Origin: Verrucomicrobiota bacterium
GTDB taxonomy: Bacteria > Verrucomicrobiota > Verrucomicrobiia > Limisphaerales > AV2
Direction: 5' to 3'
DNA length: 33,406 nucleotides
NCBI GenBank assembly: GCA_003219675.1
Contig: QHPW01000170.1
Span: 1-33,406, forward strand
Under the pieces are notes generated by a model, which was given only the letters and a program-made list of their open reading frames with translations, searched no databases and was not told the DNA's origin. Both the position numbers and the translations under genes were made by a program. Of this stretch, positions 24,355-32,200 are shown one piece after another. How positions within the stretch are numbered: position 1 is the stretch's first letter; every line of letters begins with the position of its first letter.

Positions 24355-24436
24355 AAGATTCGGGGCTACGTCCCAAATCATAACCGACCCGGCAGAACTG
24401 GAACAAGCATTCCCTGTGGGCAACACCGATCCCCTC

Positions 24437-24510
24437 GTAGCGGCGTCTCGGCAGAGCGCCGCTGGCGTGTTGTTGTCAGGAACTGCGGCGCTCTGCCGAG
24501 ACGCCGCTAC
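24437..24510. repeat. palindromic repeat family R3, intergenic copy, followed by further small hairpin modules up to about 24600
   Basis: GTAGCGGCGTCTCGGCAGAGCGCCGC ... GCGGCGCTCTGCCGAGACGCCGCTAC. It is followed by GGTTCATGG...CCATGAACC and the hairpin ACAGGCA-TCT-TGCCTGT (24581-24597). Confidence 0.88.
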
Positions 24511-24825
24511 GCCCAGGGTTCATGGAGCTGATGTGCGGGTGGAAAACCGTTGGAGCTTCCCATGAACCGCAGAGAGTAGGACAGGCATCTTGCCTGTTCG
24601 GAGCTCGCTGGGAATGCAACCGCGAAACACCAAATACATGAAACAAATCCGCGTATTCCGCGTGGTCCGCGGTCAAGAATCTGTCCTCCAAACTCAACGT
24701 GCTCTCGCTGCCGAACGGAGCTGAGCCACAGCCGGATGAACCGGCGGCTCGAAATAGGAGCCGCGCTAAACCCATGATAGGCAACATTCTGTTCATGTTA
24801 CTTTATTATACCGCATCCAGCAATC

Positions 24826-26590: not shown

Positions 26591-26920
26591 AACCGCGAAC
26601 CACGGGAAATACACGAAAAGAAAGCCGCGCTATCCCGTGAACTCCTGTAAAATCAACAGAAGGAGACCAAGGAAACAAAGATGCAAGACCTTCTTCGTTC
26701 TCTTCGTTGACTTTTGTTTAAAACGTCCGAGTGCGTCGCCGAAAGAAAAGCGTGAGCCACGGAAGGCGGCCGGTGCTGACGCTGCTGGGGACCGAAGATC
26801 ATCCCTTGCGCAAATCGCTCTGAAGAACGGCCGGGCGAAACGCAGCTTCCTTACAGGAGGCAACAGGAAACGGAGAATCAAGCAATCCCTCCGTTCTCTT
26901 CGTTACCTTCTGGTGCAGCC
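26591..26920. repeat. cluster of short low-complexity repeat modules (family R6 and relatives) in a non-coding stretch of about 1 kb
   Basis: AACCGCGAACCACGGGAAATACACGAAAAG lies at 26591. The modules at 26660-26724 and 26856-26920 share GGAAAC...CGTTCTCTTCGTT. No credible ORF lies between 26156 and 27106. Confidence 0.6.
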
Positions 26921-27106
26921 TTTGATCTTTGATATGCGAGCGGGTGAGAGTCTCGCCTCGGCAATAGGTGGTCGGGCCGAGTAGTGATAGCAGACCCTGG
27001 TTGGAGGAGACTCTGGCTGGGGCAAGCTCTGCCGTAAACGGCCGGGCCTGTCGGCGTGAGATGTGCAGGCGGGGACTGGTCAGCCGCCCTAGCTAGACGA
27101 ATCAGC

Positions 27107-27703
27107 TCACCGATGGCGGTCCGTCCGTGACTCCCGAATTGCCGGGCAGCGTCGCGGGGCCGTCATTCGGTAGAGCGACGGTGTTCGGCTGGAGTCTCGC
27201 ACCTCGACGCTAGCGGCCCATTGGGGGTCGACAGACGCTCGCCCTCTCAGAGGAAGCATGCTCCGTGTTGCCCACATGATCCGGGCCTTGACTGCCAGAG
27301 CCTCGATGCCCTCCGCTTCTCTACGATACTCGACATTCGCGCGCCATGATTGAGCCGCAGGCCAGTCGACGCTAAACATCCGGTGGGCCCCCGCCTCCAG
27401 AAGCTGCGGGAAGTGCTTCGGTGCTTGCTCAAGAAAGGTCCACACCCGGAACTCCTGCTGCGAGATAGTCCGCCAACCCGCATCCTCCGCGACCTGAACT
27501 TGGACGTCGCCGATCCAGATTGCCTTTCGTGATGCAGTGTTTGTAACGGCGAACACCGCAATCCGATCGACGCCTCGGCCTTTGCTCTCGACGAACCGCA
27601 CGACTGGACAAGGCAGGTCAGCAGAATCCACGCGCATAAGCATCCAAGACAGGATGCCGATGCCGAGCACCGCGCTTAGAATGATGACACTCCTCACGCG
27701 CAT
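27107..27703 (-). CDS. hypothetical membrane-anchored protein
   Basis: 198-aa ORF with an N-terminal TM segment (VIILSAVLGIGILSWML). I recognise no motifs. The C-terminal ~45 aa is Arg/Ser-rich and may be read-through. Confidence 0.45.
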   Translation of the reverse strand: MRVRSVIILSAVLGIGILSWMLMRVDSADLPCPVVRFVESKGRGVDRIAVFAVTNTASRKAIWIGDVQVQVAEDAGWRTISQQEFRVWTFLEQAPKHFPQLLEAGAHRMFSVDWPAAQSWRANVEYRREAEGIEALAVKARIMWATRSMLPLRGRASVDPQWAASVEVRDSSRTPSLYRMTAPRRCPAIRESRTDRHR

Positions 27704-27809
27704 GACCTGGCAAGACGTGGAGCCGAACGCTCCGGCTCAGGCACGACGGGCCAATGATGTCCGCTTGTCAACTGAGGCGCGATCCCGGCGTTGCCTGCAG
27801 CCGGTTTGT

Positions 27810-28444
27810 GTGCGCCTGACATGGGCGTGAACTGATGGGGTGAAAGTCCCCTGTGCGGGAACACCGTCATCCGGTTGGCCTTCATGGGCAGCAGGATGAC
27901 GCAAGCACTAGACCGAAGCAACTGCGGAACCGCGAGGTTCCGTGGGAAGGAAGCCACCGGTCAAACCTGGTGAGCCGACGAATAGAAAGATCATATAAGG
28001 CTGACAGAATGGACAAGCTGGCACCACACAGCAAAATCCAGTGTTCAGTTCCGGAGGTAAATGATCCGGTTGCTCAGGGAGAGTTCACGTTCTTACTCAG
28101 GGAGGCCTGTGCTCCTGGCTCTTCGGCAACGAAGGGCGCGGCGGTTCGAGAGGATCGTCGTGCGGGAACAGGAGTCAGCAGAGGCCATAGTACCGGGAGC
28201 AACGAGCCGGTGATGACACCGGACGGTCTCACAACCCGGGAAGGGCTGAACTTGGCAGGCAGACACGACCATCGGTGGTCTTGTCCCGGAGCGATGAAGC
28301 CGATTGGCTGAGCTGCCGGACAGCGATCACCGTGGCAGAGAAAGAGTGCTGATTGATCCGCAAGGACTGCCAGGAACCGCCGTACGCGGACCCGCATGTA
28401 CGGTGGTGTGGGGGCCGAGGGGTCAATCCCCTCGGCTACCCGAT
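27810..28444 (+). mobile_element. ORF-less group II intron ribozyme (~635 nt)
   Basis: The 5' end GUGCGCCUGACAUGGGCG resembles my recollection of the Ll.LtrB 5' start, GUGCGCCCAGAUAGGGUG. Domain V is at 28377-28406: CCGCCGUAC-GCG-GACC-CGC-AU-GUACGGUGG, with a 9-bp lower helix, a CGC triad and a 2-nt bulge. Domain VI is at 28412-28441 with bulged A 28438, 7 nt from the 3' end ...CCCGAU. The domain IV stem CUUGGCAG / CUGCCAGG encloses only about 125 nt, so no RT ORF is present. Confidence 0.85.
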
Positions 28445-28591
28445 TAGGCCGCGTCATTTGACTCGCATGACAACCTCAGCCTTCTTGGTCCTGCAGCGTC
28501 CATGAGCTCGTTCGTACACGAACTTACGGACAGCGATAAACTCAACGGCAAGGTGAATGTGCGAATACTCATGACGTGTGAAGCGGCCTAA

Positions 28592-28667
28592 CGACTTAAG
28601 TTTTTTGTCGCGGGAGAGAGCTGAGGTTTGGGGGTTGGTGTGGAGCCGCGACAAAAAACTTAAGTCG
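28592..28667. repeat. perfect 22-bp inverted repeat with a 32-nt loop
   Basis: CGACTTAAGTTTTTTGTCGCGG (28592-28613) and CCGCGACAAAAAACTTAAGTCG (28646-28667). It lies about 43 nt downstream of the 131-aa minus-strand gene. No flanking U-tract. Confidence 0.8.
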
Positions 28668-28709
28668 AGTTCCATAAAACTGGTTTCTCAGTTCGGCATC
28701 GTCATGATG

Positions 28710-29105
28710 TCACTGAATCTTCTTGGCGATCTCCGCCGCAATCTCCGCATTGGTGGTCGCGGCTCGCTCAATGCGTGAAATCAGGTTCGTGTCTCCGTTG
28801 GCGTGATAAACTCGATAGTAGCTGCCAACCCAATATGCCAAATGCTTCTTGGCAGCTTGTGCGTCGCCACGATCCAGAATCTCAATGGCTCTCAATGCGA
28901 CCATCGCGACTGACTCGTCCTCACGCTTGATAACTGCCAGACTCTCCGGAAGTTGCTTGACCATCTCTGCATCAGATAGTCCGGTGGTCTTCTGCACGTC
29001 TTGGTAGAGGTGTTGCATCCGCAACGCTGGACGAGTGTACCCAAAATACCAGCCGATGCCGATACCGACTGCCAAACAAACGAGCGATGAGATGAGACGC
29101 TTCAT
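28710..29105 (-). CDS. hypothetical membrane-anchored protein
   Basis: 131-aa ORF with an N-terminal TM helix (LISSLVCLAVGIGIGWYFGY) and a helical, charged remainder. Its GC content is visibly lower than the flanks. No recognisable motif. Confidence 0.55.
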   Translation of the reverse strand: MKRLISSLVCLAVGIGIGWYFGYTRPALRMQHLYQDVQKTTGLSDAEMVKQLPESLAVIKREDESVAMVALRAIEILDRGDAQAAKKHLAYWVGSYYRVYHANGDTNLISRIERAATTNAEIAAEIAKKIQ

Positions 29106-29207
29106 ACCCGAGATGCCGAACGAAACAGGTTAGCCGTCATAAAAATCGTGTCTGCCCTCTTTTGAGAACATGAAAAAACTCATACCAAAGTCCGCCGGTC
29201 GTGTAAT

Positions 29208-32200
29208 TCATCTGGACTGTTTCAAGTAGGCGATCAGGTCGGCCAGGTCTTGCGGTGTCATGTTCTGTTCCAGTCCCTCCGGCATCAGCGAAAGGTTCGA
29301 AGCTTTGATCTCCGTGATGTCGGTCCGCAGAATCTTTTCCTCCAACCCGCCGCCCTGCACCAGGGTGAGACTCGAGGCGGCCTCGGCATTGACCACGCCG
29401 GAAAGGGACCGGCCATCCTTTGTTTCGATCTGGTAATTGATGAAGCGCGGTTCAATCGCGGCGTTCGGATCGAGAATGGCGACGAGAAAATCCTTTGGGC
29501 TCTTGCTGCGAAAGGCCGCCAAATCAGGTCCGACGGCATGTCCCTGGCCGCCGAACGCGTGGCAGGTCGAGCAGACCTTTGCGAACACCGCCTCGCCCCG
29601 GGCCGGGTCTGCGGCCAGATTCAGCGCGCTTTCATACCTGGCCAGCACCTCGCCGCGGTTGCCCGATGGATTGCCGGAGAGCAGCGTGTCCGCCCGCCTT
29701 CGAATCGCTTCGCTTCCGCGCTTGAGCAGGCGCTGGCGGTTCGCCGGCGAAATTTCACTGGCAGCGATGGTTCCTTTTTCAATCGCATCGAGGAGGCGAT
29801 TGATCCACTCATCCCGGGCCGACAAGGTGCCAAGAACGGCATTGCGCAAGGATGGTGAATGATGCGGCCAGTCGGCCAGCAACAGTCCGGGCACTTTCGG
29901 ACTGCGGGTCCGCGCCAGGGCGGCCAGGGCTTCCGTTTGCAAACGAGGCGGCGCTTGCGGCGCGAGAAGCTGCTCCAGCAACTCCAGGTCGGCATCAAGC
30001 TGTCCGGCGTCGTGTCCGAGCAAACCCACGGCTGCAACGCGGGTCGCTTCGTCAACCGACGCCTCCCGAACGGCGCGCCGCGCGTCCGCAACCACCTGTT
30101 CGGCGCGCGCGACCGCCGCGCCGACTTCAACGCTTGAAGCGGAGGAGAGTGAACGCAAGTTCCGCCCGTGTCGATTCAACGCATCCAGCAAACTGCCCAA
30201 CGCCTCGAATTGCCAGAGTTCAGCCGGCTTGCCCTGGGCCGGCGAGAGGGCCGACAGCATCTGTTCCAAAGCCCGCCGGTTGTCAGTGCCGACGGCCGTC
30301 GCAATGAGTTGATCGATCATCCATTTGCGCGCCGGAGAATCGGTCGAATCCGTCAGCAGGCTGCGCAGAATAATCGCCGGGAAACGAGGTGCGGAACTGA
30401 CGACGGCCGTTCGCAGCCAGGGGTCTTCCAGACCGCTTTGAAGCAATTGAGCGAGCGCCTCAGCAGAGCGCGGATCGTTCCACTGGCCGAGGCTCAAGGC
30501 AAGCTGGTAACGAACCGTCGCGTCCGGATCGTGGAGAAGCTGCAGCAACGCGGCGCCCTCAGCAGAGCGCGGATCGTTCCACTGGCCGAGGCTCAAGGCA
30601 AGCTGGTAACGAACCGTCGCGTCCGGATCGTGGAGAAGCTGCAGCAACGCGGCGCCTAGGTGCGAGTCGTGGGGCGCGACTCCTTCGAGTCCCGGCCTTT
30701 TGTTCGCTGACACGGGGCCGGCGGGGACCCCGGCATCACCGGAGAGGAAGGGTTCGCTCAAGCGAATCGCGTGCTGGCGCACGGCCGGATCGGGGTCGTT
30801 GAGCGCGTTTTCCAGCAGCGCCGGTGTCAACGCGTTCAAGCCGTCCAGCACGCACAGCGCCTGAAGCCGAACCGCGGGGTGTCCGCTGGTCCTGGACAAT
30901 GCCGTCAGGGAACCCAGGCCGGTCTTGTCGTTTCGGCGCAGCAGCTCCAGATGAATACGGTCGCGTTCGGTGCCGTTTGGTGTCTCGAGGGCGGCGGCAA
31001 GCTCGATCGCGCTCAGGCGGGACAAATTGCGAATTGGCCGAAGGCTTTTGTGGCGCGGATAGACGCGGTAGATCCTCCCTTTGTCGTCGCCGGCGCGGAC
31101 ATCGAGCCTGGCGAGGCGATCCGGCGGAATCCAGCGCGGATGCTCCACAACGAACCGGTACATATCCACGATCCACAACGCCCCGTCCGGCCCGGTGCGC
31201 GCCTGCACCGGACGAAACCAGTTGTCTTTGGAGGAAAGGAATTCGCTTTGCAGTTCGTCCGGCGCCCGATAACCGCGGAAGGTGACGCCGTTCGGTTTGA
31301 GAATCAGACGATGCACGAGGTTGTGCACCGGTTCGCAGATGAACGCGTTGCCGTAATAATTTGTTCCCGGCAGATCGTCCCGATAAATGCCCAGGCCGCA
31401 AGCGGACGTGGTGCGGCCGGCCGAGCCGGGATCGTTGAAGCGTTCGAGCATGCGGCTGACGGGGAAGAGGTGGTTGGGGTCGGAATCGGCCGGAACGAAC
31501 ACGCGCGGCTCCGGCGACAGCACGTGCGGGTTACGGCGGCCATAGGGGTCGGGCAGGGGATAATGCCAGAGCAATGTGCTGTTGTCGCAGCCGTACCAGT
31601 TGCCCCGGTCGTCGCGCACGCGGCCCTGCTGTGTCAGGCCCGACGCCGGCTCGAATTCGCCCGTGTCGGGATGCATCCGGAAATCACGGCCGCTGATGTC
31701 AATGGGAGGGGAATTGGAGTGTTGGAGTTCTGGAGTGCTGGTTTTGGTCGTCCACTTCCCATGACTCCAATACTCCGTCACTCCAACGCGATGGATTGTG
31801 CCGCCGATCAACCCGTTTGCGCCATAGATCCAATTATCCAGGCCAAGACTCAAACTGTTGACGCGCGCCTGATAATTTTCGGTCGCGAAGCCGGTGAATA
31901 TTTTCTTCACCACATCGGCCTTGCCGTCGCCGTCGGTGTCTTCGGCGTAAAGAATGTCCGGCGCGGCACAGACGAGCACACCTTTGTTCCACGCCATGAC
32001 GCCGGTGGGGAAGGGGAGGCCGTCGAGGAAAACGGTCGCCTGGTCGTATTGGCCGTCTCCATCCAGGTCCTCCAGAAATTTGATGCGCCCGCCCGGCTTC
32101 CAATGGCCGTCCATGCCCATGGGATAATCACGCATTTCGACCACCCACAGTTTGCCGTCCGCGCCCCAATCAATCGCCACCGGGTCAACCACCAGGGGTT

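Follow-up and report, generated by a model that had tools for sequence, protein, structure and literature searches.

Group IIC introns of the attC-targeting lineage (IIC-attC introns) insert into the bottom strand of integron attC sites by a TTGT/T rule at the R'' box (PMC7923331), and are arranged antisense to the integron cassettes (PMC3001079; PMC7923331). Copies without an open reading frame (ORF-less introns) were regarded in 2015 as rare in bacteria (PMC4424553), and those of Thermosynechococcus elongatus are spliced and mobilised by intron-encoded proteins (IEPs) that their sibling introns supply (Mohr et al., 2010, PMC2882425; Zimmerly and Semper, 2015, PMC4424553). The ORF-less class C introns, long thought rare, are now of interest as protein-free DNA-cutting ribozymes: the hydrolytic endonucleolytic ribozymes (HYERs; Liu et al., Science 2024) are described, in secondary sources, as ORF-less class IIC introns which multiply in genomes and cleave single-stranded DNA without protein. 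The window analysed here, a stretch of 33,406 nucleotides (nt) from a Verrucomicrobiota bacterium (contig QHPW01000170.1), contains on the plus strand, at 27810-28444, a complete ORF-less group IIC intron of 635 nt, GUGCG...GAU, delimited by Rfam matches, end-to-end alignment and a consensus fold with covariation. Since ORF-less IIC introns (HYERs, 2024) and IIC-attC introns have both been published already, this intron adds one member to them; its comparison with related introns points to a non-autonomous element, probably mobilised in trans by an IEP-bearing relative.

The whole window was scanned against Rfam at the curated gathering thresholds and shows exactly three matches, all collinear, on the plus strand and within 27926-28444: group-II-D1D4-3 at 27926-28091 (112.3 bits, E 1.8e-22), group-II-D1D4-1 at 28137-28246 (56.7 bits) and Intron_gpII, which contains domains V and VI, at 28375-28444 (43.1 bits, threshold 40). 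A compact group II ribozyme at 27810-28444 had been proposed by a model that saw the sequence alone (the sequence-only reading); it is borne out by these matches, which come from the covariance models named in that reading and lie inside the interval it gave, and by alignment with 25 relatives (alignment A1, 26 members including the window copy). The 5' end GUGCG (27810-27814) and the 3' end GAU (28442-28444) follow the GUGYG / AY rule, and both boundaries are confirmed by the relatives, whose ends align with them from first to last base. Domain I (DI) ranges from 27815 to 28101 in the RNAalifold consensus mapped to the window, and group-II-D1D4-3 covers its fragment 27926-28091. Domain II (DII, 28102-28176) shows hairpins capped by GCAA and GAGA, with helices 15-18 rich in compensatory changes, and J2/3 (28177-28182) precedes domain III (DIII, 28183-28247), which falls in the group-II-D1D4-1 match and whose pair 28196/28236 shows a G-C/A-U swap in the clade and in contig L001 (related loci are labelled L001 onwards). 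Domain IV (DIV, 28251-28374), compared with the IEP-bearing introns L208, L194 and L130, contains no ORF; its closing stem pairs CUUGGCAG (28251-28258) with CUGCCAGG (28367-28374) and encloses 108 nt, and its helices 22-25 covary. Domain V (DV, 28376-28407, from the Intron_gpII alignment) shows the CGC triad at 28378-28380, an AU bulge at 28396-28397, an upper helix of 3 bp and the loop GACC, and its base pair at alignment columns 635/652 swaps between U-A and G-C across the family. Domain VI (DVI, 28409-28442) contains the bulged A28438, a branch-point candidate located 7 nt from the terminal GAU, and five pairs of its helix 29 carry compensatory changes. Both ends, the bulged A and a 30-nt DV (28377-28406) with the same triad, bulge and upper helix had been read correctly from the sequence, except that DV is delimited here one base wider on each side.

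By these features the element is a structurally complete group II ribozyme with all six domains. The markers of class C are the change of the triad from AGC to CGC and a DV 4 nt shorter than the Rfam consensus; the target marks of this class are a short exon-binding site 1 (EBS1, positions 1-4 only) and a hairpin upstream of the insertion (criterion from PMC7923331). The class C reading made from the sequence alone is upheld by the triad, the shortened DV and the short EBS1, and the element can be assigned on sequence grounds to the class C group II introns of the attC-targeting lineage. That DIV is too small for a reverse transcriptase (RT)/maturase also holds: besides the 108 nt enclosed, a tblastn search with three RT/maturases of related introns shows none at E<=1 in the whole window. 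The internal ORF 27853-28311, described earlier as lacking RT motifs, indeed has no Pfam match. The internal ORFs were rejected as genes, given the absence of Pfam matches, the absence of any recorded gene with such products and the single-base indels found in relatives.

In the IEP-bearing introns L208 and L194 the RT ORF begins at GGAGacgATGAAGCCGAC in DIV and runs as far as a TGA in the 5' strand of DV. The window intron contains at 28288-28311, on the plus strand, a remnant of the IEP translation start, GGAG-cg-ATG AAG CCG ATT GGC TGA, which in the alignment faces GGAGacgATGAAGCCGACTGGC, the site in L208 at which the RT ORF begins, and it also retains about 40 nt beyond this remnant. All four nucleotides, A, T, C and G, are seen in the clade at the first base of the former start codon and, therefore, translation is not selected. 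The deletion stub is capped by the hairpin UCC-GCAA-GGA at 28357-28366 (plus strand, alignment columns 608-618), which is UUCG in some relatives. DIV of the window intron consists of the 5' untranslated region and start region of the former IEP, a tetraloop-capped stub and the closing stem, the RT/maturase gene having been lost. A purine-rich 15-nt motif, GGCAGAGAAAGAGUG, located at 28334-28348 on the plus strand, is the same in 23 of the 26 members of A1, and the other three show an A-to-C change at one position. Allowing one free position, the complete introns collected contain 30 matches to this motif, every one in an ORF-less intron and none in an IEP-bearing one; within DIV the motif is mostly unpaired.

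The consensus fold was derived from A1 itself, which favours that fold, and corresponds to the canonical six-domain fold with 165 pairs, in which 97.9% of the cells are standard pairs. Double-sided changes are nevertheless present in 47 of the 165 pairs, well beyond both controls (24.4 +/- 2.6 in shuffles, none of 500 reaching 47, and 8-18 with slid partners), and compensatory changes are found in every domain, including the DIV stub. A DI-DIII fold with covariation from homologues, recommended by the sequence-only reading as a check, was in this way obtained. By this substitution pattern, the RNA fold of the ORF-less family is under purifying selection. The window copy shows six non-standard pairs, in a clade range of 0-13, and seven private changes at near-invariant columns, all of them G>A or C>T: four are in compensated pairs, two break pairs (28006 and 28036) and one hits the conserved GAACA motif (27983). 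Judged by its alignment, this copy is largely intact and slightly worn. A broken core had also been considered, since only 45 nt separate the two D1D4 matches, against about 121 nt in L003 and L004, but it was rejected because the IEP-bearing introns L089, L047, L113 and L080 share the short spacing. RT-bearing relatives exist, but they do not reveal the recent deletion with a broken core that the sequence-only reading had considered: the ORF-less lineage is old, diversified and, by its fold, structurally selected.

The EBS1 hairpin loop, GCACNACA / GCACCACA, is located at 28021-28028 on the plus strand and was identified by its covariation with the exon over 93 unique insertion sites. EBS1 contains A28023, C28024, C28025 and A28026, opposite to exon bases U27809, G27808, U27807 and U27806, respectively, with a C.U mismatch at exon position -3. 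Of the 93 sites, 90 pair exon -1 (U) with position 1 (A) and all 93 pair exon -2 (G) with position 2 (C), and in 65 position 4 forms A-U with exon -4. Position 3 covaries with exon -3: 53 sites are Watson-Crick, against 34.7 expected, a value reached by none of 5000 permutations, and no other base of the loop varies within the clade, except for a single change from A to G at loop position 3 of L132. Loop positions 5-6 show no consistent exon complementarity over the 93 sites. This distribution points to an EBS1 of 3-4 bp, as expected for class C. Since EBS1 tracks its targets within the ORF-less clade, the elements would have kept moving after the loss of the ORF. A different EBS1 had been proposed before, the loop UCAAACC (27961-27967, plus strand) pairing with GGUUUG of the 5' exon. 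The complementarity exists but not the role: the segment is part of a conserved internal-loop CAAA motif without relation to the exons, 23 members of A1 out of 26 read UCAAAGC there, independently of their exon, and the Rfam consensus conserves it too, whereas the bases which track the exon are 28023-28026.

The 5' exon (27713-27809, plus strand) contains most of the bottom strand of an attC site, attC_B, as indicated by its fold, by the break of identity with contig L131 and by the family exon consensus, and ends with intron-binding site 1 (IBS1), UUGU, at 27806-27809. The R' core of attC_B, GTTCGGC on the minus strand (27722-27728), is at the far end of the ligated-exon hairpin and, read as 27728-27722, is followed, 18 nt further on, by the ATG of the adjoining ORF on the minus strand. 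The 3' exon starts at 28445-28455 (plus strand) with U28445 as IBS3 and, together with 27808-27809, reads GT|TAGGC, which is complementary to the R'' box GCCTAAC. Once ligated, the exons, ...GCAGCCGGTTTGT|TAGGCCGCG (GGTTTGT|TAGGCC, giving GTTAGGC), fold as an imperfect hairpin of about 107 nt with a z score of -2.9. The 5' exons of the intron family share a consensus, and the window exon fits it. The insertion point of the intron is TTGT|T, within the R'' box on the bottom strand of an attC site. It lies on the plus strand and the flanking ORFs, 27107-27703 and 28710-29105, are on the minus strand, so that it is antisense to the cassettes. Its location in non-coding DNA, noticed before, is correct; the stem CCGGC...GCCGG of the 5' exon is a hairpin upstream of the intron, as had been seen, but it belongs to the attC bottom strand and not to a terminator-like target.

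The best plasmid matches of the intron are introns in class 1 integrons and an intron of a Thiothrix plasmid. These plasmid relatives match the same Rfam families as the window intron and show in common the exon context ...TTGT|intron|TA... The class 1 integron L004 contains an intron with an LtrA-type gene between the dfrA14 and qacEdelta1 cassettes, antisense to both, and the window intron shows segmental nucleotide similarity of 68-85% to it. Further relatives were collected in two scans, each giving at least 120 loci: a genome scan with the conserved 5' motif, using one genome per species, and a scan of metagenome contigs with the GUGCG/GCG variant of the motif; the counts from both are samples and not totals. 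Both ends are present in 52 introns of the genome scan, among the matches listed: 28 range from 499 to 1049 nt, 22 from 1.83 to 2.2 kb and two are intermediate. The metagenome scan shows at least 26 short introns of 628-659 nt and at least 15 long introns of 1.79-2.24 kb, the majority of which encode an RT. The 25 short ORF-less introns aligned with the window copy (627-660 nt) are collinear with it, 76-90% identical and located at different attC-like sites; no sibling more than 90% identical to the window copy was found among the matches listed. Considering only the loci where a 2.4-kb element would fit downstream of the 5' motif, ORF-less and IEP-bearing introns are 19 and 13 in genomes and 8 and 5 in metagenomes, respectively, among the matches listed. 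This ORF-less majority contrasts with the rarity view (PMC4424553) and agrees with the 2024 description of HYERs.

The IEP-bearing relatives are about 1.88 kb, have a DI 82-97% identical to that of the ORF-less subclades, occur in the same kinds of samples as the ORF-less copies, and encode IEPs with RVT_1 and GIIM and no endonuclease domain; that of L130 contains RVT_1 and GIIM only. One DIV deletion junction is common to all 26 ORF-less members, the window copy included, whereas ORF-less and IEP-bearing introns are intermixed in the DI tree, and the DI of each ORF-less subclade is 88-97% identical to the DI of one particular IEP-bearing lineage. When the subclades of A1 are compared with L130, L214, L194 and L208, three ORF-less subclades are seen, the DI of each being nearest to a different IEP-bearing lineage. 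A single origin of the ORF-less clade followed by purely clonal divergence does not fit the mixed DI tree, despite the one DIV junction, and the combination of both points to a mosaic or recombinant history. The mosaic of subclades suggests that ORF-less and autonomous introns have recombined or switched templates. The ORF-less L117 and the IEP-bearing L089 are 96.6% identical and lie within one metagenome-assembled genome (MAG) of Syntrophales. Loss of the ORF is seen repeatedly: L117 resembles L089, L040 resembles L062 and L017 resembles L004.

The reading which we consider probable is that of a non-autonomous group IIC intron of the attC-targeting lineage, mobilised in trans by an IEP-bearing relative. 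The excised intron RNA would reverse-splice into the single-stranded or folded attC bottom strand, the target being recognised by the 4-nt EBS1-IBS1 pairing, by EBS3-IBS3 with the first T of the 3' exon and by the attC hairpin, and the RT/maturase of an IEP-bearing relative in the same cell would copy the inserted RNA into DNA. Since the intron is antisense to the cassettes, its splicing would have no role in host gene expression, and selection on the fold would therefore come from the propagation of the element itself or from its ribozyme activity. A helper acting in trans finds support in the endonuclease-less RVT_1 and GIIM IEPs, the presence of L117 and L089 in one MAG and the pairing of each DI with an IEP-bearing partner; the retained Shine-Dalgarno (SD) and start region of the former IEP can be counted for it too. 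In the Ll.LtrB intron the region matching the former SD and start of the IEP is DIVa, which binds the IEP. The mosaic of subclades would be the outcome expected of frequent co-residence and recombination. Trans-mobilisation is the most economical model and most likely the correct one, although its mechanism is deduced by comparison; the sequence-only reading had left it open against domestication or decay, and at the family level the comparative data favour it over simple decay. Several points weigh on the other side. The window copy itself carries the seven private G>A/C>T changes, two of them pair-breaking and one in GAACA, and its C.U mismatch at exon -3 is a combination found in only seven of the 93 sites. 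The tblastn search shows no RT, and with it no helper IEP, within the window, and no sigma-70-like promoter for the intron strand was found upstream of the intron. The IEPs of class C introns are not known to bind DIVa. Finally, the HYER work, as secondary sources present it, stresses a protein-free hydrolytic activity and does not establish a spreading route.

Another reading is that of a lineage that is or was mobile, of which this copy is an inactive, slowly decaying fossil fixed in the cassette array. This is less probable than the reading given above but has to be taken seriously: the private GC>AT transitions, with two positions unpaired and one in a conserved single-stranded motif, the EBS1 mismatch with exon -3, the lack of a promoter-like site upstream and the lack of a sibling above 90% among the matches listed would all fit a relic, but four of the seven changes are compensated within helices, the six non-standard pairs are inside the clade range and all the catalytic landmarks are intact. 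Somewhat more doubtful is a HYER-type element, compatible with mobilisation in trans, in which the RNA alone would cut single-stranded DNA or RNA (folded attC bottom strands, for instance) by hydrolysis, guided by the target sequence, and would spread or be kept by this nuclease activity with no need of a cognate IEP. HYERs are themselves ORF-less class IIC introns which multiply in genomes and cut single-stranded DNA unaided, and HYER1 has 637 nt and a 6-nt target recognition site, close to the 635 nt of the window element, which comes from an abundant ORF-less lineage. Nevertheless, only four EBS1-loop positions are complementary to the targets over the 93 sites, the DIII loop shows no conserved palindrome in the 26-member alignment, and DNA copies at new sites would still require a reverse transcriptase.

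A role as domesticated regulator, with the intron blocking read-through from upstream and supplying an outward promoter for the next cassette, is improbable. IIC-attC introns in class 1 integrons do block Pc transcription and carry outward promoters (PMC3001079), and in cassette orientation the window intron is just upstream of the 198-aa ORF; however, neither inside the intron nor close to it does the minus strand show a sigma-70-like promoter site, conservation tracks the ribozyme fold and not one DNA strand, and the copies are located at many unrelated sites. Hardly any weight can be given to the idea that a full-length intron recently underwent a single internal deletion which damaged its core. 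Derivatives of this kind exist, such as that of L002 (554 nt) and two short copies on L097 (499 and 555 nt), but the window intron keeps DI-DVI, and the junction shared with 25 diverged relatives in A1 and the covarying fold, DIV stub included, contradict it; the short DI-DII spacing compared with L003/L004 is no sign of damage either, being also present in the IEP-bearing L089, L047, L113 and L080. An extension of the trans-mobilisation reading, which is unlikely in all its parts taken together, would see here a long-lived lineage of about 635 nt, similar to short interspersed elements (SINE-like), which parasitises IEP-bearing IIC-attC introns at the attC bottom strands of soil chromosomal arrays and time and again recombines the ORF-less DIV-DV with the DI of whichever autonomous partner is present; GGCAGAGAAAGAGUG would be a new functional element, and the intron possibly a protein-free nuclease cutting the same DNA strand on which integron integrases act and thereby influencing cassette dynamics.

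Other arrangements of these introns were seen among the related loci. Head-to-tail tandem arrays of ORF-less class C introns are present in L092, L098, L105, L079, L109, L247, L212 and L135: L092:3879-6921 contains four copies of 760 nt and L105 three of 597 nt, and the next copy begins directly after the preceding GAU (Endozoicomonas, Pseudohongiella, Chromatiaceae and soil contigs). L135 also contains an IEP-bearing copy with the start of a further intron 3 nt behind it. L180 and L228 (a 944-nt stretch) show mini-derivatives of about 200 nt, which contain the first ~118 and the last ~80 nt of the intron, two of them on one contig. L167 and L173 have an ORF-less-type intron with a 1.66-kb insert between DII and DIII, without similarity to intron RTs. 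L002:2991-3544, in a class 1 integron of a Salmonella IncC plasmid, is a 554-nt deletion derivative of an IIC-attC intron with a broken core, in which DI has been joined to the segment coding for the IEP C-terminus, together with DV-DVI, and it is found on at least six enterobacterial plasmids. The window contains one copy of the intron, and L001 hints at a truncated second copy in the same community. L001:1-1099, a 1.1-kb contig of another assembly, aligns with window 28176-29220 and is identical over 28237-29220; before 28237 it shows the DIII of a different clade member, with seven differences, among them a compensatory replacement of G-C by A-U, and ahead of this DIII are 56 unrelated bases. 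Two readings fit L001: a further intron copy of the same community, truncated at its 5' end, or a chimera of the assembly.

Around the intron, a series of minus-strand features makes up a cassette array. Cassette B (28456-28591) is short and ORF-less and opens with TTAGGCCGCTTCA (28591-28579), which complements the R'' region of the cassette's own attC, 28444-28456 and 28579-28591 forming an inverted repeat of 13 nt and 92%. The candidate attC_A (28586-28690) shows a perfect 22-bp stem followed by G|TTAGGC, with a z score of -6.0; it is tentative, as a perfect stem is atypical for attC. The stem corresponds to a perfect inverted repeat with 22-nt arms, 28592-28613 / 28646-28667, followed on the minus strand by G|TTAGGC, which may be an atypical attC; another perfect inverted repeat, with 27-nt arms, is located at 24436-24462 / 24485-24511. 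The putative attC_C (27097-27191) is unoccupied and shows 73-90% identity to the sequence just 5' of introns elsewhere, although its fold is weak (z -1.7); its intron-occupied relatives are in L214, L230, L210, L233, L180, L247 and others. It overlaps the 3' end of the cassette ORF of 198 aa (27107-27703), downstream of attC_B, and a second cassette ORF of 131 aa (28710-29105) lies upstream of the array segment; neither shows a Pfam match. In soil contig L131 (L131:576-1533 against window 27184-27810) the 198-aa ORF is 97% identical, the identity ends at the R' core, and the ORF sits behind a different attC, which holds only the first ~90-110 nt of an intron. L131 speaks for shuffling of the cassettes and for fragments of introns in arrays. 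Two short hairpins, 26645-26720 (flanked by GTCAAC...GTTGAT) and 26850-26920 (flanked by GGTAAC...GTTGCC), have the arm AACGAAGAGAACG in common and may be further attC sites of another type, but their z scores are weak (-1.7 and 0.0, respectively).

The array finds support in the complementarity between the cassette B start and R'', in the break of L131 at R' and in an empty attC_C homologous to occupied sites. Within it, attC_B is well supported, attC_C has support from its homology to occupied sites, and attC_A and the two further sites are tentative. No IntI1 homologue was found in the window at E<=1e-3, nor any integron integrase among the Pfam-scanned ORFs; IntI homologues are present on several related intron loci (L106, L141, L039 and others). 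The segment looks like a cluster of attC sites lacking an integrase (CALIN) or part of a larger integron. The neighbouring genes of the window, PSCyt2/PSD1, DUF1501, DUF1559 and DUF7133-HEAT-cytochrome c, form a set typical of Planctomycetota, and the intron marks a cassette array without integrase in the window, in a genome that looks Planctomycetota-like by these genes.

What this locus adds to the published groups is a delimited natural example of an ORF-less class C intron with a 26-member alignment, a conserved remnant and a motif in DIV, and partners among the IEP-bearing introns. In its lineage, among the matches listed, ORF-less copies are at least as numerous as RT-bearing ones and combine a selected fold with a conserved DIV remnant, and the pairing of each subclade with an RT-bearing partner provides a concrete, testable model of spread. 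The window intron resembles the IIC-attC introns of the S.ma.I2 type, found in integron arrays and CALINs, in its CGC-triad class C ribozyme, its insertion at TTGT|T in R'', its antisense orientation and its short EBS1-IBS1, but it differs from them in having no IEP, in a Planctomycetota-like chromosome as host instead of a proteobacterial resistance integron, in its 5' end GUGCG instead of GUACG and in the sizes of DII and DIII. With HYERs, as described in secondary sources, it shares an ORF-less IIC structure, almost the same length (635 against 637 nt in HYER1) and an abundant ORF-less lineage; this likeness is one of published descriptions, and the DIII dimerisation palindrome of HYER1 is not evident in the window clade. 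The loop ACCACA (28023-28028) is homologous to the HYER target recognition site, of which four positions track targets here, compared with 6 nt in HYER. The IIC intron of Oceanobacillus iheyensis shows the same minimal IIC fold, CGC triad, 4-nt EBS1 and EBS3 as the window element, but the ORF deletion of its crystallised construct is man-made, the natural intron having an IEP and homing behind terminators, whereas the window intron is naturally ORF-less. The T. elongatus introns, with non-autonomous copies alongside IEP-bearing relatives, are the model for action in trans; they are of IIB/CL-type and close relatives within one cyanobacterial genome, whereas the window intron is a IIC intron with an attC target, belonging to an ORF-less lineage which has diverged to 76-90% identity across many environments.

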